A stretch of 56,332 nt of DNA, from NCBI GenBank assembly GCA_964440955.1, contig CAYTTP010000003.1:1-56332 (forward strand), in the 5' to 3' direction. Position 1 is the first letter of the stretch; every line of letters starts with the position of its first letter. The notes below the pieces were generated by a model. That model saw only the letters and a list, made by a program, of their open reading frames with translations. It was not told where the DNA came from and did no database searches. Source of the DNA: an uncultured Candidatus Saccharibacteria bacterium. GTDB lineage: Bacteria; Patescibacteriota; Minisyncoccia; Phycocordibacterales; WO2-35-19. Positions 605 to 55,061 of this stretch are shown piece by piece. A program made the translations under genes and the position numbers.

Positions 605-673
605 TTGAAGGCACCGGTTTCGAAAACCGGCATGCTCGAAAGGGCATCAGAGGTTCAAATCCTCTCACTTCCG
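587..673 (+). tRNA. tRNA-Ser(CGA), class II, no CCA encoded
   Basis: Acceptor GGAAGTG/CACTTCC, anticodon arm CCGGT-TTCGAAA-ACCGG, long variable arm, T arm AGAGG-TTCAAAT-CCTCT, G73. Confidence 0.9.
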
Positions 674-850
674 CAAAACAAGGAACAAAATGAGTAGCAT
701 TTTGCGACTATGTTTTTGCGAGAAAAGGAGAGATTTGAAGACCTTTTGAGCTAAAATTAATTTTAAGAAAATTTTAGCCAAAAGGTGTACTGAAACTGTA
801 AGTTTCAAATCCTCTCACTTCCGCAAAACAAGGAACAAAATGAGTAGCAT
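654..850 (+). repeat. tRNA-3'-end-associated structured element, type B (tRNA-Ser copy), with 47-nt flanking direct repeats
   Basis: Segment 654-700 equals 804-850 (tRNA 3' 20 nt plus 27 nt of trailer, including the ATG of the next ORF). In the 103-nt insert, 712-739 is antisense to 804-829. The end GGTGTACTGAAACTGTAAGT resembles the tRNA-Leu(CAA) copy. Confidence 0.75.
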
Positions 851-1398: not shown

Positions 1399-1545
1399 CA
1401 AGCGTGAAGAAAATCTAAACTGCTTTAGATTTTTAGCTTGTGGAAGGCGCAGTGATGTTTTTGTTTGAGCGAAGCGAAAGGCAAAAACCACGAGCCGGGG
1501 TCGCGAGATTTTTCTGTCAAGAAAAATACTTGTGACCACAAGCGT
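1396..1545 (+). repeat. tRNA-3'-end-associated structured element, type A (tRNA-Ala copy)
   Basis: Direct repeat CCACAAGCGT at 1396-1405 and 1536-1545. Contains a CUGC-apex hairpin (AAAATCTAAA-CTGC-TTTAGATTTT), a hairpin with a GAGCGAAGCGAAA loop, and the 3' module GGGGTCGCGAG-hairpin-ACTTGTGACC (1497-1537). Confidence 0.75.
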
Positions 1546-7387: not shown

Positions 7388-7669
7388 ATGAAAAACTTAA
7401 CCGAATTTATAACTTTTTTTACCGATATGGGGCTTAGGCTTGTACCACTATTTGCTGTCCTCGCCTTCATGTATTTTGTGTGGGGAGTAGCACGCTTCAT
7501 CAAAGCGGCGGGCAATGAAAAAGAGGTGGGGGACAGCAAAAAGATACTTATTTGGGGTGTTGTCGGCCTACTCGTGCTTACAAGTATTTGGGGTATTATT
7601 TCCTTTCTCAAAGGTGAGCTAAGATTTGGCGACAATGTTGGTATTCCTCAAATAAAATTTGAAAATTAG
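7388..7669 (+). CDS. pilin-like small membrane protein, short form
   Basis: 93 aa with two hydrophobic helices. Shared motif: YFVWGVARFIKAAGNEKE...LIWGVVGLLVLTSIWGII. Confidence 0.6.
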   Translation: MKNLTEFITFFTDMGLRLVPLFAVLAFMYFVWGVARFIKAAGNEKEVGDSKKILIWGVVGLLVLTSIWGIISFLKGELRFGDNVGIPQIKFEN

Positions 7670-7679
7670 ATGAAATAAA

Positions 7680-7949
7680 ATGAATGATTTTATTGATAAA
7701 GGTTATTCGATTATCACCAATACTCTCATCCCGCTTGGGTACTTTGTTTGCCTCTTTTACTTTGCTTGGGGTATTGCAAAGTACATCAAATCGATCGGTG
7801 ACGGCAAGGAGCAGGGCAGGCAAATAATGATTTGGGGAGTAGTTGGCCTTTTTGTAGTTACGAGTATTTGGGGTATTATTGAATTTATAAAGCTCGAAGT
7901 TGGCTTGCCTTTCGATAATTCAGAGCTCGATGCAAAAGTTTATAGGTAA
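7680..7949 (+). CDS. pilin-like small membrane protein, short form
   Basis: 89 aa. Motif: YFAWGIAKYIKSIGDGKEQGRQIMIWGVVGLFVVTSIWGII. Confidence 0.6.
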   Translation: MNDFIDKGYSIITNTLIPLGYFVCLFYFAWGIAKYIKSIGDGKEQGRQIMIWGVVGLFVVTSIWGIIEFIKLEVGLPFDNSELDAKVYR

Positions 7950-7961
7950 AAATATAAAAAC

Positions 7962-8318
7962 ATGAAAAATAATTTTAAAAAAATAATTCCGGTTTCCCTC
8001 TTCCTTTTACCAATTTTAACAAGCGCTCAACTTGATGGGACAGACAAATTTTTTGGGAAAGCAAAGTCAATCGTAAGTGATACTTTGGTACCAGGAGCAT
8101 TTTTTGTAGCCCTCGTGTATTTCTTCTACGGTATCGCCAAATACATCAAGTCTGAAGGTGCCGGCAAAGCCGAAGGCAAAATGATCATGGTGTGGGGAGT
8201 GGTCGCTTTGTTTGTTGCTTCGTCAGTTTGGGGTTTGGTCACTCTTTTACAAAAGGAAATAGGGATAAACAGTAACCCTGGCAGTATGAAAATACCAACT
8301 TTAGAAACATATAGATAA
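7962..8318 (+). CDS. pilin-like small membrane protein, short form with signal peptide
   Basis: 118 aa. Motif: YFFYGIAKYIKSEGAGKAEGKMIMVWGVVALFVASSVWGLV. Confidence 0.6.
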   Translation: MKNNFKKIIPVSLFLLPILTSAQLDGTDKFFGKAKSIVSDTLVPGAFFVALVYFFYGIAKYIKSEGAGKAEGKMIMVWGVVALFVASSVWGLVTLLQKEIGINSNPGSMKIPTLETYR

Positions 8319-8323
8319 TATTT

Positions 8324-8620
8324 ATGCTTACAAACACCGAAACTTTTTTGAATCAAGCTATTACTCTTTTGACCAATAGAGTCATACCTATTGTCTTTAT
8401 CCTCGCTACGCTCTACTTCTTTTGGGGCATTGTCAAATACATCAAGTCGGAAGGTGCTGGCAAAGCTGAAGGAAAAGCCATTATGGTGTGGGGAGTAGTA
8501 GCCCTTTTTGTGATGACTAGCGTATGGGGCATCGTTCGCTTGTTGAGAGTTGATTTGCTTAGTGGGCAGGACACCAACAGTATCCAAATCCCAACCGCCA
8601 CTTACGGTACTACTCGCTAA
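8324..8620 (+). CDS. pilin-like small membrane protein, short form
   Basis: 98 aa. Motif: YFFWGIVKYIKSEGAGKAEGKAIMVWGVVALFVMTSVWGIV, near-identical core to the previous gene. Confidence 0.6.
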   Translation: MLTNTETFLNQAITLLTNRVIPIVFILATLYFFWGIVKYIKSEGAGKAEGKAIMVWGVVALFVMTSVWGIVRLLRVDLLSGQDTNSIQIPTATYGTTR

Positions 8621-8751
8621 CCACTTCCCACCTACTCCCTACTCCCTCTGTGGATTACTTTTTGCTTGCAAAGGCAAAAAATGGTAAAGTAATGGTAAAT
8701 TAAAAATGTTTATTCATTTTAATTATTATTAAAAAGTATTTGCTAAATTAA

Positions 8752-9096
8752 ATGAAAAAAGTATCTATAGCAGTAGCGATGGCTCTTTTGCCACTTTCAA
8801 CCTTTGCCCAACAGCTCGGCAATATCAGCAACTTAGTTGATAGCGCAAGCGGTATAATCAATAAGGTTATACCTATATTGTTTACACTTGCTTTGCTCGG
8901 CTTCTTTTGGGGCTTGGTCAGATTTCTTTTTGGTGGTGCTGAAGACAAGGATCAGGCAAAAAACATTATGATTTGGGGCGTAGTAGCGCTTGCGGTCATG
9001 GCTTCAGTTTGGGGATTGGTCAACTTCCTTGGTTCGGCATTTAACATCAACAAGGATGCCGCTCCTTCTGTAAACCCTCTTATTCCAAAACCTTAG
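8752..9096 (+). CDS. pilin-like small membrane protein, short form with signal peptide
   Basis: 114 aa. Motif: FFWGLVRFLFGGAEDKDQAKNIMIWGVVALAVMASVWGLV. Confidence 0.6.
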   Translation: MKKVSIAVAMALLPLSTFAQQLGNISNLVDSASGIINKVIPILFTLALLGFFWGLVRFLFGGAEDKDQAKNIMIWGVVALAVMASVWGLVNFLGSAFNINKDAAPSVNPLIPKP

Positions 9097-9114
9097 TTGG
9101 TCTTTGGTCTACAA

Positions 9115-9148
9115 AACAAAAGAGCCGTATTGTACGGCTCTTTTGTTT
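9115..9148. terminator. bidirectional intrinsic terminator-like hairpin
   Basis: AAAGAGCCGTA-TTG-TACGGCTCTTT, flanked by an A-run and a T-run. Confidence 0.75.
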
Positions 9149-9187
9149 TCCCTTGAATTTTATTACCTAACATTTAGAATTAGAAAT

Positions 9188-9220
9188 ATCACCCCTAGCC
9201 CCTCTTACTTTAAGAGGGGA
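9188..9220. repeat. TCACCCC-hairpin intergenic motif, copy 2
   Basis: ATCACCCCTAG followed by the hairpin CCCCTCTTA-CTT-TAAGAGGGG. The arms are the same as in copy 1. Confidence 0.55.
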
Positions 9221-9251
9221 ACAACAACTTAATTTTTAATTTTCAATCCTT

Positions 9252-9515
9252 ATGCCTGTCATCAAAAGCTTGCTCAATCAAATAGCCACACTCTTTTTGA
9301 ACCCGCTCATCATTCTTGGTTTTGTTGTTGCTACACTCTATCTTTTTTGGGGTATTGGGCAAATGATACTAAACGCCGACTCAAGCAAGCTCGACGAACA
9401 TCGGAAGGGAGTTATTTGGGGCGTTGTTGGCTTACTTATCATGTTCTCCGTTTACGGCATTCTCCGTCTTGTTATCCAAACTTTTGAGATCGAGTGTAAT
9501 TTGTATTTTTGTTAG
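9252..9515 (+). CDS. pilin-like small membrane protein, short form (divergent)
   Basis: 87 aa. Motif: LYLFWGIGQMILNADSSKLDEHRKGVIWGVVGLLIMFSVYGIL. Confidence 0.55.
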   Translation: MPVIKSLLNQIATLFLNPLIILGFVVATLYLFWGIGQMILNADSSKLDEHRKGVIWGVVGLLIMFSVYGILRLVIQTFEIECNLYFC

Positions 9516-12005: not shown

Positions 12006-12572
12006 GGTCTTCATTTGAGATAACAGCTGTTACTTGTCGGCTTTGGCTTAGCGGGTTTTGCCCGTCTTCGCTAAAGCTTTGGCGGGTGATAGAGGAAAGT
12101 CCGAACATGGGTCTCGACCGAAAGGTACGGGAAAGAGTAGCGGGTAACGCCCGTCGTGCGCAAGCATAGGGTTGCGAACAGAAACGATCCGGTTAAGTCC
12201 GGCTGAAACGGCAAAATACCTATTTCCATGCAAGGCCGTACTGGGAGATGAAAGTTTCTCAGGGTGCCGCTAAAAATCCCCATAAGGATTTTTATCCTGA
12301 GCTAATTTAGGTACATATATCTAAATTGGTCGAAGGATTCTAATCATTAAGGATTGATGATTCGTTTGGCAACAAACGCAACAGATGAATTGTTATCACC
12401 AATTTTGTCTACCGGAGGTAGTAACAAAATTGAGTGTCCCGCGAAACGTAGTGGAGTGGGGCATATCCAACTTCGCCTTTCGATAAACTCAAGGCTACGC
12501 TGGATGCTCAATTTTGCAGCTACTTGCAGTAGGCAAAATTGGCACAGAATTCGGCTTATGATAATGAAGATC
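12006..12572 (+). ncRNA. rnpB: RNase P RNA (bacterial type A-like), expanded to about 567 nt
   Basis: GAGGAAAGTCC at 12092-12102 and ACAGAATTCGGCTTAT at 12544-12559. GGGTAACGCC, CAACAGAAA-like and AGATGAAT motifs lie between them. P1 pairs GGTCTTCATT (12006-12015) with AATGAAGATC (12563-12572). The P3 hairpin is at 12061-12086. Confidence 0.88.
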
Positions 12573-18076: not shown

Positions 18077-18239
18077 CAATATTGTTTCGCAATATTGTTC
18101 GACCGAGCACGCAAACTGCTTTGCGTGCGTGTAGGAAGTCGAAAGCCGGAGCCATGTTGAGCGAAGCGAAACAGGCGAGGCGGGGTCGCAAGATTTTGCT
18201 AAGCAAAATACTTGTGACCGACTCCTACCGGGCGGACAA
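18059..18239 (+). repeat. tRNA-3'-end-associated structured element, type A (tRNA-Lys copy 1), with 21-nt direct repeats
   Basis: CGACTCCTACCGGGCGGACAA lies at 18059-18079 and 18219-18239. The element carries TGTTCGACCG (antisense to the acceptor 3' strand), a CUGC-apex hairpin, GTAGGAAGTCG (antisense to CGACTCCTAC), a GAGCGAAGCGAA loop, and GGGGTCGCAAG-hairpin-ACTTGTGACC. Confidence 0.78.
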
Positions 18240-18372
18240 GCGTGAAGAAAATCTAAACTGCTTTAGATTTTTAGCTTGTCCGAGACGGAGCCATGTTTTT
18301 GTAGCAACAAAAACAGGCGAGTCAGGATCGTGGAAATTTTTGAGCGACGGCGATAAAATTATCCATGATGAC
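18240..18372 (+). repeat. tRNA-3'-end-associated structured element, type A, second tandem copy (divergent 3' module)
   Basis: It starts with AGCGTGAAGAAAATCTAAACTGCTTTAGATTTTTAGCTTGT, identical to the tRNA-Ala copy. The 3' module GTCAGGATCGTGGA-hairpin-TCCATGATGAC is analogous but diverged. GACAATATTG recurs at 18075 and 18370. Confidence 0.65.
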
Positions 18373-19432: not shown

Positions 19433-19509
19433 ATTTATCACTTGCTTGTCCCGCCGAAGCCATTTTGTGTTGGTGGCGAAGGGGGAGCGACTAGGTCACT
19501 TTCGTGATT

Positions 19510-26889: not shown

Positions 26890-27135
26890 GAACACCACTT
26901 ATGAGCACGTGAGAGAAAGATGAACGAACATTGGTGGTGTCCTAAGCCCGAAAGTGGCGAGGGTAAGGCCGCTTGAGATCCAAGTCGGACTACCAGCATA
27001 CCCCCAAGATCTTCTGGTTTACTCTAAAGAGAGTATTCCGCTCCATCGTGTGACGATGAAGGCTGTTTTTCGACGTCTCTCACAGGTCCAAGCCGGACTG
27101 TTTTGATTGTAGCATGTTTTTATATATAAGTTTAG
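26890..27135 (+). ncRNA. candidate structured noncoding leader RNA of the RT module
   Basis: About 250 nt with no credible ORF. Stems: ACACCAC/GTGGTGT (26892-26898/26934-26940), GTGAGAGA/TCTCTCAC (26909-26916/27076-27083), CATCGT-GTG-ACGATG (27044-27058). A 13-nt direct repeat lies at 26979 and 27087. Confidence 0.45.
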
Positions 27136-28056
27136 TTGTATAAATCAAATAAAATAGGTTATCCTCTGTTCGGAGGCCTTGTGGATAAACCTGCATTTGA
27201 AAGGTATTTTCTGAGAGATGTAAATCATCAGAGTGGTAGGGTGAAAAATCGAGAAATTTTTGCTCCAAACGATTCAATGCGTGAGGTGCAAGAGGGTATA
27301 GTGGCCAAACTTCGGTCTTTGGAGATTGAGATGCCGAGCGCGACTGGTGGTGTCAGGAATGGTTCGCCAGTCAATAACGTCCTCAAACATTGGTCACCTT
27401 ACAATAAGAGTGCGAGATACTTTTTTCTGCTTGATCTAGCATCTGCTTACAAGAATGTCCTTGTGAGCGATATGTTAGTTGAACTGAAGAGGGTGTGGCC
27501 ACATGATTGCGACGAGAAGTTTGTTCAGAGTGTTATGAATCACTGCTTGATACCGGGTGAGGGTTTGGCAACTGGAGGTAACGCCTCGCCAGATATTTTC
27601 AACCTATGTATGGAGATTTCGATTGATCGGCAAATACGCTCGTATGCCGAATACAACGATCTCACCTACACTCGTTATCTCGATGATCTGACTTTCTCAT
27701 CTCCTTTTCCGATAGGTAAGAGGAAGAGGAATACGATCATCAAGATTCTCACTGAAGCTGGTTGTGTCGTTAACCATCAAAAGTCTCAGGTGCTTGATAT
27801 CGAAAAGCATCATGTGGAAATAAATGGTATCGGCTTGCGTCGTAGCGGACACTTCTTCATGCCTAGTCGGGTCTTGGATGAGTTAAAAAACTTGCTCTAT
27901 CGGGCAACTAGAGGGGAGTCCATTTCCGATTCTCTCATTCAAGGCAAGATGGGCGGGTTCATCTATCTTAGGAGAAAAGGCTTGCTTGCTCTGACCGAGA
28001 GAGAACGTAATATCCTTCGACGGTACGAGCAATATCTGCCGTTGCGCCGGGGTTAA
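27136..28056 (+). CDS. reverse transcriptase, minimal stand-alone type (retron/defence-RT-like)
   Basis: RT motifs: NREIFAPNDSMREVQ, SATGGVRNGSPVNNVLKH, FFLLDLASAY, GLATGGNASPDIFNL, YTRYLDDLTFSS (27676-27687), VNHQKS, EINGIGL. The likely true start is GTG 27181, behind GGAGG at 27172-27176. Confidence 0.88.
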   Translation: MYKSNKIGYPLFGGLVDKPAFERYFLRDVNHQSGRVKNREIFAPNDSMREVQEGIVAKLRSLEIEMPSATGGVRNGSPVNNVLKHWSPYNKSARYFFLLDLASAYKNVLVSDMLVELKRVWPHDCDEKFVQSVMNHCLIPGEGLATGGNASPDIFNLCMEISIDRQIRSYAEYNDLTYTRYLDDLTFSSPFPIGKRKRNTIIKILTEAGCVVNHQKSQVLDIEKHHVEINGIGLRRSGHFFMPSRVLDELKNLLYRATRGESISDSLIQGKMGGFIYLRRKGLLALTERERNILRRYEQYLPLRRG

Positions 28057-28130
28057 ATCCTCGGCGCTCTGTTTTTAATAGTGTGTAAAAATTTTGAAAT
28101 ATCTGGTATTGTGTGCGGAGGAGGTGAACT

Positions 28131-28535
28131 ATGTCCAGTATCTCGAATAGAGAAATGACATTTGTTGTAGCTGTTCTGTACTCTTTGCCCGAAAAGTGGC
28201 GAGGGGTTGGCCGTTCTTTCTCGTTTGAGGATGTGCAAGATAGGCTACATCTTGCTTGGCATAGACTCTATCAAGAAGGATTGCTTGGGGAGTTTGGTGA
28301 ATCGTTTTCTTTTGACGCTCTTTGTGGCTCAGACAGTCTTGGGCAAGCACTTCGCACAGCTGCGGTAGATGGGCTCATAAGGATCGGTGGCTCTGATATG
28401 GCTTATCATGTTGATGTCCTGAAGCCTGACCAAATTGATCGTATGTTAGAGTCGTGCGTAATAGACCGAAGTGCCGTGACTACTGCTGTCAAACGTCTCG
28501 AAGCTATTCTCGAAGAGAAACCCTCCCCGGCTTAG
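28131..28535 (+). CDS. hypothetical 134-aa protein, RT-associated
   Basis: Strong RBS GGAGGAGG 7 nt upstream of the ATG. Same strand as the RT and 74 nt after it. No motif recognised. Confidence 0.6.
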   Translation: MSSISNREMTFVVAVLYSLPEKWRGVGRSFSFEDVQDRLHLAWHRLYQEGLLGEFGESFSFDALCGSDSLGQALRTAAVDGLIRIGGSDMAYHVDVLKPDQIDRMLESCVIDRSAVTTAVKRLEAILEEKPSPA

Positions 28536-28681: not shown

Positions 28682-28872
28682 CAAAATAAAACCCAGCTTC
28701 TGCTGGTGTTTTATTTTGTGCGCCGGAAGTGCAGCTTTGTGTAGCAAAGCGTAGCACGGATTCGAAAGGCGGAAGAAATTTTTTAGCAAAAAAATTTCTG
28801 AGCCGGGGTCGCGAGCGATTTTGCTTGACTGAAGCAAAATCGACTTGTGACCGAATCCTGCCCGGCGCACCA
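28664..28872 (+). repeat. tRNA-3'-end-associated structured element, type A (tRNA-Tyr copy), with 19-nt direct repeats
   Basis: CGAATCCTGCCCGGCGCAC lies at 28664-28682 and 28852-28870; the second copy reads through to ...ACCA. Internal antisense segments are GTGCGCCGG (28718-28726) and GCACGGATTCG (28754-28764). The 3' module GGTCGCGAG-hairpin-CTTGTGACC is at 28807-28852. Confidence 0.8.
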
Positions 28873-36106: not shown

Positions 36107-36203
36107 GGGCCTATAGTTCACCATGTCATTCGCGAATGACGTGGTCAGTGGTAGAATAGCGGTCTCCACCCCGTCGCTCGCGAGCGACAGGGTCCAAAAC
36201 CAA
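36107..36203 (+). pseudogene. tRNA-Trp-like 5' fragment interrupted by two palindromic insertions
   Basis: GGGCCTATAGTTCA..TCAGTGGTAGAATAGCGGTCTCCA..CCAAAACC shares ATAGCGGTCTCCAAAACC with the real tRNA-Trp. Insertions are CCATGTCATTCGCGAATGACGTGG (36121-36144) and CCCCGTCGCTCGCGAGCGACAGGG (36169-36192). No 3' half is present. Confidence 0.55.
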
Positions 36204-36209
36204 TACCAG

Positions 36210-36470
36210 ATGTATTACGTCTATATTCTTAAAAATTTAGAGTCTGACTACTTATACATAGGCTACAGTTGTAATCTCAGAAGGAGAATAGAAGAACATA
36301 AAAGTGGTAAGGTTTATACCACCAAGCGATTAGGTAAAAATATCGAGCTTATTTACTACGAAGCTTATAAGAGCAAAGAGGATGCGCAGGATAGGGAAAA
36401 GAGTTTTAAAAAATCTGGTTCAGTGTATAATGGCCTTATTAAAAGAATAAAGAGAAGTAGGGGTGATTAG
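36210..36470 (+). CDS. GIY-YIG nuclease family protein (short stand-alone type)
   Basis: MYYVYILKNLESDYLYIGYSCNLRRRIEEHKSG...YYE... carries the GIY-YIG motifs. The last 10 nt overlap the tRNA-Trp 5' end. The track ORF from 36123 reads through the pseudo-tRNA and is probably not the real start. Confidence 0.8.
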   Translation: MYYVYILKNLESDYLYIGYSCNLRRRIEEHKSGKVYTTKRLGKNIELIYYEAYKSKEDAQDREKSFKKSGSVYNGLIKRIKRSRGD

Positions 36471-36534
36471 TTAAGTGGCATAATAGCGGTCTCCAAAACC
36501 GCGGTCGTGGGTTCGATTCCCTCATCACCCGCCA
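36461..36534 (+). tRNA. tRNA-Trp(CCA), CCA encoded
   Basis: Acceptor GGGTGAT/ATCACCC, anticodon arm GCGGT-CTCCAAA-ACCGC, T arm GTGGG-TTCGATT-CCCTC, then G73-CCA. Confidence 0.9.
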
Positions 36535-40899: not shown

Positions 40900-40949
40900 T
40901 TCTAGAGTATATTGATTTTTACTTGATTTTCAATATAATTTTAGAGTAT

Positions 40950-41030
40950 GCCGGAGTGGCGGAATGGTAGACGCGCACGACTCAAAATCGTGTCTCGCAA
41001 GGGGTGGAGGTTCAAGTCCTCTCTCCGGCA
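40950..41030 (+). tRNA. tRNA-Leu(CAA), class II, no CCA encoded
   Basis: Acceptor GCCGGAG/CTCCGGC, anticodon arm CACGA-CTCAAAA-TCGTG, variable arm, T arm GGAGG-TTCAAGT-CCTCT, A73. Confidence 0.88.
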
Positions 41031-41190
41031 CAGATTGAGCAAAGCGAAAGTGGTGTCGGAGAGGCGTAGCTTTTTGTAAAAAAGCGTTACGCGGACTTGA
41101 AACCCGATTGAGATTTTTTAGGAGTATCGCGAACTAAAAAACCAATTGGGGTACTGAGTCTGTAAGACTCAAGTCCTCTCTCCGGCACCA
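41012..41190 (+). repeat. tRNA-3'-end-associated structured element, type B (tRNA-Leu copy), with 20-nt direct repeats
   Basis: TCAAGTCCTCTCTCCGGCAC lies at 41012-41031 and 41169-41188; the second copy ends ...ACCA. TGGTGTCGGAGAGG (41051-41064) is antisense to CCTCTCTCCGGCACCA. GGACTTGA (41093-41100) is antisense to TCAAGTCC. It begins with GAGCAAAGCGAAAG. Confidence 0.78.
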
Positions 41191-54729: not shown

Positions 54730-55061
54730 TCCGGGATAGCTCAGCGGTAGAGCGAGCGACTGTGTCGTGACGCAGCTTCCAAAAGAAATTTTGGTTGAAA
54801 AACGAGGTGAATTCGGGGGAACCCCAAGTGGGCAATCCCGAGCCAATCCTAAATTAAAGAAAGATATTGTTGTGTAAAAACTTTAATTAAGGCAGGTGTA
54901 GAGACTATTCCGAAAGGAAGTACTTACTCCGTATTTCGGAGTCGGGAAGCGCCTCGCTCCTAATAGCCAATTTGGTTAAAGGAGATGATATAGTCCATAC
55001 TTCTAGTAATAGAAGAGAATATGTAATCGCTTGGTCGTAGGTTCGATCCCTACTCCCGGAG
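54730..55061 (+). tRNA. tRNA-Asn(GUU) interrupted by a group I intron in the anticodon loop; no CCA encoded
   Basis: Exons 54730-54763 and 55024-55061 join to give acceptor TCCGGGA/TCCCGGA (U1:A72, G73 as in tRNA-Asn), anticodon arm AGCGA-CTGTTAA-TCGCT, T arm GTAGG-TTCGATC-CCTAC. Confidence 0.85.
54764..55023 (+). ncRNA. group I intron (IC3-like), 260 nt, no ORF
   Basis: The 5' exon ends in U and the intron ends in G. GCAG (54772-54775) can pair with the exon CUGU as P1. The core strings GAATTCGGGGGAACCCCAAG, GAGCCAA and GGTGTAGAGACTA (54895-54907) match the conserved core of bacterial tRNA group I introns. Confidence 0.85.

Follow-up and report, generated by a model that had tools for sequence, protein, structure and literature searches.

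Small non-coding insertion elements behind tRNA genes of Patescibacteria carry direct and inverted copies of the adjoining gene end

We analyzed a 56,332-nt stretch of DNA from an uncultured Candidatus Saccharibacteria bacterium (contig CAYTTP010000003.1), referred to below as the window, in which the gene for tRNA-Leu(CAA) is directly followed by a 157-base, structured, non-coding insert; within it, the final 20 bases of the tRNA recur once in inverted and once in direct orientation. The source is a Parcubacteria-like bacterium of the candidate phyla radiation (CPR); the window encodes MiaA, ParB, ClpB, MurC, and DprA, and the best relatives of its MiaA are found in Patescibacteria, with up to 59% identity. 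The existence of a widespread family of small (~100–190 nt), non-coding, non-autonomous insertion elements of Patescibacteria/CPR is well supported, as is its location at gene 3′ ends, overwhelmingly those of tRNA genes, and on the tRNA-sense strand. Full-text literature searches found no description of such an element family; the nearest literature on CPR tRNA genes deals with group I introns.

The insert behind tRNA-Leu(CAA)

We use X for the functional gene end, X′ for the inverted copy of X, and DR-L and DR-R for the proximal and displaced direct repeats (Table 1). A 20-nt direct repeat brackets a 137-nt insert. DR-L is identical to 41169–41188, an exact repeat that a first-pass annotation of this DNA had already reported, together with the ACCA that ends the displaced copy, which we find at 41187–41190. 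The functional tRNA ends in ...GGCA(N73)-C followed by A, so the full CCA is not encoded there; past the repeat, the distal copy goes on with CA and the proximal copy with AGATT. With two 1-nt indels allowed, the repeat grows to ~27 nt (CAC-AGA-TT versus CACCAGAATT). The native flank leading to parB (41225) follows DR-R, and a scan of the window found no terminator-like site between tRNA-Leu and parB.

The inverted copy is split into two parts by a side hairpin. Segment 41051–41064 had been described as antisense to the tRNA end through CCA, and this complementarity stands, but it covers the last 14 nt (TCTCTCCGGCACCA) and not the 16 nt quoted. The pairing proposed for 41093–41100 also holds, with GGACTTGA(A) at 41093–41101 pairing with (T)TCAAGTCC. 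Jointly, the two parts pair with all 22 nt from T55 to A76, and the resulting duplex has a predicted energy of −34.7 kcal/mol, compared with −17.0 ± 2.9 kcal/mol in shuffled sequences, none of which (0/1000) was as low. The loop that separates DR-L from the inverted copy occupies the position of a terminator-like hairpin in many other copies. Its motif GAGCAAAGCGAAAG (41037–41050), which the same annotation had seen as a link between two element types, recurs with 1–2 mismatches at 514, 1467, and 18159, beside tRNA-Ser, tRNA-Ala, and tRNA-Lys. Side hairpins of the CGTAGC...GCGTTACG class occur also in L130, L135, and L172 (L-numbers, e.g. L020, label the compared stretches).

Table 1 Features of the tRNA-Leu(CAA) locus and of related loci in the window.
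Feature	Position	Strand	Remark
Sigma-70-like promoter TTGATT-16-TATAAT before tRNA-Leu	40912–40939	+	Consensus scan only
tRNA-Leu(CAA), functional gene	40950–41031	+	ARAGORN
DR-L, tRNA positions T55 to C74, within functional tRNA	41012–41031	+	
Loop between DR-L and inverted copy	41032–41050	+	Recurrent hairpin-cap motif GAGCAAAGCGAAA
Inverted copy part a, TGGTGTCGGAGAGG	41051–41064	+	Complement of positions 63–76, two G.U pairs
Side hairpin splitting inverted copy	41065–41092	+	CGTAGC...GCGTTACG class
Inverted copy part b, GGACTTGAA	41093–41101	+	Complement of T54 to C62, abuts core
Core stem P_a, CCCGATTG (41103–41110) with CAATTGGG (41143–41150)	41103–41150	+	Covariation; one G.U
Inner hairpin enclosed by P_a	41113–41141	+	
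GTAC linker	41151–41154	+	Invariant
Small hairpin TGAGTC-TGTAA-GAC+TCA	41155–41171	+	
DR-R, displaced copy	41169–41190	+	T55 to A73 plus encoded CCA
Type B copy behind tRNA-Ser(CGA)	651–850	+	Core 736–810
Type A-like element, tRNA-Ala	1400–1535		
Type A-like elements, tRNA-Lys	18080–18218 and 18240–18372		
Type A-like element, tRNA-Tyr	28683–28851		
Retron-type reverse transcriptase	27136–28056		Best versus retron reverse transcriptase models

Downstream of the inverted copy lies a core whose consensus consists of the P_a stem, the GTAC linker, and a hairpin TGANNC-TGTAA-GNN. In the tRNA-Leu element, the 3′ strand of this small hairpin crosses the right junction (41168/41169) and borrows T55-C56-A57 of the displaced copy. 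The 137-nt insert together with the distal copy folds as RNA with z = −6.8 relative to shuffles, and the unit 41012–41168 taken as single-stranded DNA (ssDNA) has a predicted fold of −35.7 kcal/mol, likewise at z = −6.8. An alternative fold is predicted for the full precursor, in which the proximal copy pairs with the antisense and the tRNA 5′ strand with the distal copy. The element contains no open reading frame (ORF).

Covariation of the core was computed on 52 distinct sequences, with slid-partner and shuffle controls. Across P_a, the inner hairpin, and the small hairpin, 92.8% of cells are paired; the covariation is 0.488, compared with 0.134 after shuffling and at most 0.17 with slid partner columns, and 12 of the 22 core pairs change on both sides. 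A G.U pair occupies P_a position 4 in 16 copies and a U.G pair hairpin position 1 in 43, while A.C is nearly absent, which indicates that the tRNA-sense strand folds and its complement does not. The conserved core is a real structure on the tRNA-sense strand, as RNA or ssDNA. Conserved loop motifs (CUGGGAG, AAACUGCUUU, GAGCRAAGCGAA, and CUGUAAG) sit on variable stems. A known RNA family was considered and rejected: Rfam 15 gave no match for any insert of the window, the tRNA-Leu element included, at the gathering threshold or at E values up to 10, and by eye the core misfits the hammerhead consensus.

Spread, architecture, and decay of the family

Repeat-flanked inserts are present at no fewer than 5 of the 11 tRNA genes in the window, namely tRNA-Ser (5′ and 3′), tRNA-Ala, tRNA-Lys (two in tandem), tRNA-Tyr, and tRNA-Leu(CAA). 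Their ends are of two kinds, GGGGTCGCGAG-hairpin-ACTTGTGAC for type A and CAAnnGGnGTAC-TGAnnC-TGTAA-Gnn for type B, and the suggestion that a second, discrete type exists beside type A is borne out. Type A-like elements have the architecture of type B around a different core; the tRNA-Ala copy and the second tRNA-Lys copy contain an identical 44-nt hairpin, whose stem gains 3 bp corresponding to the end of the respective tRNA. In the window, a covariance model of the type B core matches only 736–810 and 41098–41174 (81.5 and 78.8 bits), in agreement with the earlier remark that the tRNA-Leu insert shares its 3′ module with the tRNA-Ser copy; the module GGGGTACTGAGTCTGTAAGAC itself (41148–41168) occurs once in the window. 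At tRNA-Ser(CGA) the direct repeats measure 50 nt (651–700 and 801–850) and reach 11 nt into the downstream ORF, and the inverted copy is unsplit and diverged.

Three observations concern related arrangements. A mirror-image element lies on the 5′ side of tRNA-Ser (454–609); its 34-nt direct repeat takes in the promoter-proximal region together with the 5′ end of the tRNA, and an inverted copy, GCCAC...ACTTCCG, adjoins the functional 5′ end. A similar antisense, CTTCGCCACCA, is located upstream of tRNA-Cys at ~19455–19470 on the minus strand. In L003 (2840–3319), at least three tandem type A-like units end a higher-GC contig that is labelled viral, though the genes it encodes (GalE, cytidine deaminase) are cellular. 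Type A may therefore extend beyond CPR genomes of low GC content.

We gathered type B copies from metagenome stretches with an exact core pattern, the matches listed coming from at least 120 stretches. Among these listed matches are 131 type B cores, 80 of which lie less than 330 nt downstream of a same-strand tRNA; the tRNAs next to these 80 cores represent at least 34 anticodons and nearly all amino acids. Contig ends cut 20 of the 131 cores. Other cores form the second units of tandem arrays, are separated from the tRNA by inserts or islands, or lie behind the 3′ ends of rplK (L094 and L152, two unrelated sequences) and lepA (L129). At rplK and lepA, the duplicated stretch comprises the final codons with the stop codon, and the gene is directly followed by an inverted copy that matches. 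The core covariance model added four copies in 80 Patescibacteria genome loci, at tRNA-Leu (L020), tRNA-Tyr (L015 and L057), and tRNA-Trp (L021). A phage origin was rejected, as 2.9 million viral contigs yielded no type B core and the one type A match (L003) is placed among cellular genes.

The order of parts is constant throughout: X, a loop or hairpin, X′ (often split), the covarying core, and a displaced X that starts exactly at T55. At the right junction, the flank after ...CTGTAAG-NN aligns at T55 of the neighboring tRNA in ~70 of 79 copies; its first three bases (T-C-R) pair with the element's TGA in 71–74 of 74 copies, and the junction NN covaries in Watson–Crick manner with the element's own NN and differs from the GT of the tRNA's G53-T54. 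The direct repeats span 10–50 nt, with one fixed boundary and one variable. On the left, a short loop or terminator-like hairpin separates the functional tRNA end from the inverted copy. Essentially every element has the T-arm half of X′ (the complement of T54 to ~C65) immediately 5′ of the core. This half varies with the tRNA and shows 93% Watson–Crick pairing over a median of 12 nt; nearly all of 75 copies have part b abutting the core. The acceptor half is clear in about half of the copies and runs through the real trailer as the 3′ arm of a hairpin. A side hairpin usually parts the two halves and belongs to one of a few classes that are common to unrelated tRNAs.

The antisense is matched to the adjoining gene. 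Over 75 copies, cognate tRNA/element duplexes average −26.9 kcal/mol compared with −17.3 kcal/mol for non-cognate pairs; the search for type B copies beside other tRNAs, which the first-pass annotation had proposed, thus finds the complementarity kept. Mismatches between antisense and tRNA comprise 7 G.U and 13 A.C and display no wobble bias.

The element behaves as a mobile insertion, because most related tRNA-Leu(CAA) genes are without it (18 of the 22 located next to miaA in other Patescibacteria), tandem arrays exist (L131, L141, L162, and L172), and displaced copies have decayed, with ~29 of 79 degenerate. At tRNA-Leu(CAA) in other stretches, L020 carries an orthologous type B copy, and an antisense-bearing element, type A-like or of another kind, is present in L013, L017, and L023. 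X′ and displaced X decay alike (0.87 versus 0.83, p = 0.3). At sites where the direct copies differ, X′ agrees with the functional one 17:3, in an alignment that was built against the functional copy and is biased its way. A small insertion, often AT or AC, interrupts the T-loop at position 58–60 in at least 12 displaced copies (e.g. L134, L139, L185, L114, L181, and L088). In L088 this insertion is ~14 nt long and contains GTGTACTCACGG, as is also seen in L092, L188, and L205, which are outside the count of 12. These scars lie 4–5 nt away from the junction with the element, a distance that two staggered exchange points would be expected to give.

Cores and left parts are exchanged independently. 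L184 has two copies, beside different tRNAs, with unrelated left parts and cores that are identical at all but 1 of 73 nt; at tRNA-Gly(UCC) in L095, L131, and L176, the left part is common and the core subtypes are different. The loop behind DR-L is conserved across the latter genomes while the flank behind DR-R differs, so the loop travels with the element. The hairpins that follow DR-L and DR-R in L020 are unrelated. In L100 (1–1400), a type B core whose X′ has been lost is preceded, at a distance of 350 nt, by an ORF for an IS110-family transposase, probably a secondary insertion of an insertion sequence into the element.

Proposed mechanism of insertion and competing explanations

Sense and antisense copies of the target next to a covarying core, within 150 nt, point to target recognition by base pairing. 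As a tentative explanation, which we regard as quite possible though short of probable, the elements form a non-autonomous family moved via a folded single-stranded intermediate that recombines in the T-loop. The mobile form would be single-stranded, either DNA or RNA, with tRNA-sense polarity, and X would pair with X′ to give a rod or dumbbell whose stem would act as a duplex mimic of the target, with the core and the 'loop' hairpin as the two end loops. Strand exchange of the recombinase type in the T-loop, at T54/T55 with a second fixed position near 59/60, would join this form to the tRNA gene. The product would read tRNA...T54-(X-loop-X′-core)-X-flank, with the tRNA intact and the old 3′ end displaced; X′ and displaced X would have no role after integration, and both would decay. 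The order X-loop-X′-core-X is exactly what one strand exchange at T54/T55 with a circle or dumbbell (X-loop-X′-core) would produce. Such an intermediate would account for the precise right junction and the invisible left one, for the need of an inverted copy (a duplex site within a single strand), and for the tolerated side branch. The strand asymmetry, the element-borne loop, the arrays, the like decay of X′ and displaced X, and the second scar position 4–5 nt away would follow as well. Uptake of ssDNA is plausible, as the genome encodes DprA. We infer that the antisense segment is an arm of a folded attachment site or a target guide, and not a primer-binding site.

Several points weigh against a folded intermediate. 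Clustering of neighboring ORFs at the 120 listed loci tied no recombinase, transposase, or reverse transcriptase (RT) to the family; it returned syntenic housekeeping genes and homing-endonuclease-like ORFs 5′ of some tRNAs, in clusters (helix-turn-helix (HTH) + LAGLIDADG-like ORFs, YraN, TsaD, and TypA) that are explained by synteny with particular tRNAs. Pfam searches of 19 ORFs of the window, 4 of which were also run against NCBIfam, yielded no recombinase. How X and X′ come to be rewritten to suit at least 34 tRNA species as well as the ends of protein genes lies beyond the model, and cores have been swapped independently of the tRNA-specific left part (L184; L095 versus L131). Some direct repeats extend far into the local flank, such as the 50 nt of the Ser copy with its ORF start, and would need extra gene conversion or a local origin. 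An excised form was not seen, the exact core pattern used as collector makes core conservation partly a matter of ascertainment, and sequence alone does not separate DNA from RNA as the mobile form.

The main rival of a folded intermediate is a staggered break with fold-back synthesis, an explanation that strikes us as unlikely but with a real chance of being correct. The core would be the mobile unit, and X′ and the direct repeat would be by-products of insertion: one cut would be fixed in the T-loop and the other variable beyond the gene end, the gene-side overhang would prime itself to make the inverted copy, and fill-in would leave the direct repeat, like a target-site duplication. Repeats with one fixed and one variable boundary fit this scheme, as does an X′ that is an exact Watson–Crick copy with no excess of wobble pairs and decays like the displaced copy. 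X′ begins right at the end of the proximal repeat in minimal copies (L152 and the Ser copy of the window), the 5′ arm of the L130 hairpin matches native flank, the L184 cores move independently of left parts, and the mirror-image element on the 5′ side of tRNA-Ser has its place as well. Matched copies at any target, rplK and lepA included, would be explained without reprogramming. However, simple fold-back copying cannot make the conserved side-hairpin classes, common to unrelated tRNAs, that split X′; the DR-L loops that are conserved between genomes when the DR-R flanks are not (L095, L131, and L176) and the unrelated hairpins of L020 also argue against it, and no mechanism of bacterial transposition is known to us that would duplicate a target in inverted orientation. 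X′ divided around a conserved hairpin may alternatively be a true two-part guide, carried by a programmable, guide-bearing mobile RNA or ssDNA, which we hold to be unlikely. A CPR enzyme would use this guide to locate its target, either the T-arm/acceptor region of a tRNA gene or the end of some other gene, and the guide and the replacement gene end could be rewritten from the new target; if this were true, the family would represent a new class of nucleic-acid-guided self-insertion system, non-coding at ~150 nt. Quite improbable, in our judgment, is a structured RNA that acts in cis, as a functional tRNA 3′ trailer or 5′ untranslated region whose antisense pairs with the T-arm and the acceptor 3′ strand. 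Its role would be to control maturation or termination, or to guide with two segments set around a hairpin, like those of an H/ACA pocket; the repeats would be relics of its origin. The sense-strand location, stems that covary with G.U pairs, the conserved loop motifs on variable stems, and the lack of a terminator between the tRNA-Leu promoter and parB in the window agree with a role in cis. So do the constant placement of X′ beside the functional end, in 3′ elements and in the tRNA-Ser 5′ element, and the conservation between genomes of left parts for one tRNA. But most orthologous tRNA genes are without the element, and tandem arrays, X′ decay, and copies at protein-gene ends are difficult to reconcile with such a role. 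A strong terminator-like hairpin precedes the antisense in about half of the copies, so the antisense would seldom be transcribed with the tRNA, and its mismatches with the tRNA have no wobble bias. Selection at the RNA level on antisense/tRNA pairing was rejected, with G.U not in excess over A.C and X′ no better conserved than the displaced copy.

The first-pass annotation had raised a further possibility, namely that the antisense is the primer-binding site of a retroelement to which mature tRNA-Leu anneals via its CCA, to be extended by the RT encoded at 27136–28056. All 22 nt through CCA can indeed pair in the tRNA-Leu copy, and the RT gene is present, but we consider this explanation highly improbable. 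Of the 40 copies whose acceptor-strand complement is clear, only 3 place TGG opposite CCA, and the pairing tracks the encoded trailer: the next 3 nt complement gene-encoded bases after N73, mostly CAA/TTG, in 19 of the 40, and pairing carries on into the trailer hairpin. The type B ortholog of L020 has GCATGCCGGAG, with no match to CCA, and L015, whose proximal copy encodes CCA, does not complement it. The TGG in the window is explained without a mature tRNA, because CCA is encoded in the displaced copy, which represents the ancestral gene, so the inverted copy contains TGG. Some copies sit at protein-gene ends; no long terminal repeat (LTR), polypurine tract, or RT is linked to any of the ~130 copies listed, and clustering of neighboring ORFs found no RT enrichment near the 120 listed type B loci. 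The RT of the window is retron-type (RT_II-A 1.7e-23; NCBIfam retron St85 1e-21, which is under that model's cut-off), has its own a1/a2-flanked upstream region, and lies 13 kb from the element. Retron RTs prime from the 2′-OH of their own RNA. A retron-clade RT with an adjacent a1/a2-flanked region, the place of the msr/msd RNA in retrons, is found at 26900–28056 only, and the tRNA-Leu element is not part of it.

Two further candidates were tried and rejected. IS110 bridge-RNA-like loops and box C/D (TIGR)-like guides do not fit, as both antisense parts read the same strand, a comparison that draws on PMC12045711, and no adjacent Tas or IS110 gene and no arrays were seen. The inverted copy is not a reduced tRNA 5′ half (pseudo-tRNA), since its T-loop is inverted, reading ACTTGAA and not TTCAAGT.

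We place the family among small site-specific insertion elements. It has single features in common with tRNA-integrating islands, folded ssDNA attachment sites, IS200/IS605-REP hairpins, and primer-binding sites, and it lacks at least one feature that defines each of them. Integrase-mediated integrative elements reportedly occupy the T-loop sublocation of tRNA and tmRNA genes, as Williams is said to have described in 2002. Like these tRNA-integrating elements, type B copies have an identity block from the T-loop to the tRNA 3′ end (here T55 to C74, with the junction at T54/T55 in ~70 of 79 copies), leave the tRNA intact with the old end displaced and decaying, and build arrays by serial insertion. 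They differ in a size of ~150 nt with no integrase or other gene, in the inverted target copy and covarying hairpin core, and in the range of a single family, which covers at least 34 tRNA species and the ends of some protein genes; neither the element nor the neighboring ORFs of the 120 listed loci gave an integrase family.

The CTX phage attP(+) used with XerCD/dif and the integron attC are folded single-stranded recombination sites. The likeness extends to inverted segments on one strand that fold into a duplex mimicking or partnering the chromosomal site, strand specificity, tolerance of branches and mismatches, an inert integrated double-stranded form, and the build-up of arrays; here X pairs with X′, a side branch is present, and a G.T/G.U asymmetry favors the tRNA-sense strand. 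In contrast to these sites, type B elements have no dif-like or R/L-box (GTTRRRY) sequences and no phage genome or cassette gene, and their stem sequence is the target itself, differing from copy to copy. By eye, the junction ...CTGTAAGNN/TCRA and the stem do not fit attC/Xer core boxes (RYYYAAC/GTTRRRY, XerC/XerD half-sites).

IS200/IS605 and REP/RAYT elements share small strand-specific hairpins, internal bases that pair with the junction flank (here TGA with T55-C56-R57), a location behind genes, and non-autonomous copies. Those systems make no target duplication and use 4-nt guides, whereas type B elements have 20-nt inverted and direct target copies and direct repeats of 10–50 nt; no ORF cluster for a Y1 (HUH) transposase was found near type B copies at the 120 listed loci. 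An internal complement to a tRNA 3′ end, with TGG opposite CCA in the tRNA-Leu copy, recalls LTR primer-binding sites, but the family as a whole does not complement CCA, its pairing reaches the T-loop and the trailer, and each element adjoins the gene it matches, with no LTRs and no linked RT, in 100–190 nt that hold no ORF. Type V-K CRISPR-associated transposons are cyanobacterial elements of 20–30 kb with Cas12k and Tns genes and a CRISPR repeat. Their homing guide likewise places a short tRNA-gene match in a mobile element downstream of that tRNA, yet their size, Cas12k, Tns genes, and CRISPR repeat are all absent here. Classical miniature inverted-repeat transposable elements, which bring terminal inverted repeats of their own and make target-site duplications of fixed length, differ as well, since the inverted arms of type B elements are target copies that vary by site and the repeat length is variable.

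The family shapes tRNA loci, their 3′ ends (with the encoded CCA displaced), and terminators in a large radiation, because it is found at a minimum of 5 of 11 tRNAs in the window and at nearly every CPR tRNA species. It also bears on assembly, as Logan contigs encoding the window's exact ParB begin inside the tRNA-Leu element, and on annotation, which displaced tRNA fragments can confuse. If an enzyme is found, the family may be a compact, retargetable insertion system; if the copies are inert scars instead, they still mark DNA insertion beside essential genes without breaking them.

Other features of the window and of compared stretches

The retron-like locus extends over 26900–28535, directly upstream of tRNA-Tyr. 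An a1/a2-like 8-bp repeat, GTGAGAGA (26909–16) and TCTCTCAC (27076–83), is spaced 159 nt apart, and a 134-aa ORF with no family match lies downstream of the RT.

Further features adjoin tRNA genes. The gene for tRNA-Asn(GUU) (54732–55061), which ARAGORN did not call, is split by a group I intron (54754–55016, 78 bits) between anticodon positions 35 and 36, the site recently reported for Patescibacteria (bioRxiv 10.1101/2025.07.03.662931). A GIY-YIG nuclease ORF (36123–36534) lies directly 5′ of tRNA-Trp and contains, at its start, a 22-nt partial copy of tRNA-Trp (36147–36168 versus 36474–36495); apparently, a free-standing homing-endonuclease cassette has here copied a portion of its target. 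In L118, L126, L135, L163, L176, and L190, ~220-aa HTH + LAGLIDADG-like ORFs run right up to the 5′ end of a tRNA-Gly or tRNA-Asp gene, with ORF and tRNA gene in every case on one strand. These tRNA genes also carry a 3′ type B element; the arrangement may reflect synteny or a second mobile layer at tRNA genes.

Two regions of the window lie apart from these elements. Region 12074–12453, which probably encodes a CPR RNase P RNA of reduced form, matches bacterial RNase P RNA class A only weakly, at 39.8 bits with a gathering score of 100. Region 7388–9515 contains tandem paralogous small ORFs (~90–120 aa) with common repeat blocks of 65–98 nt.

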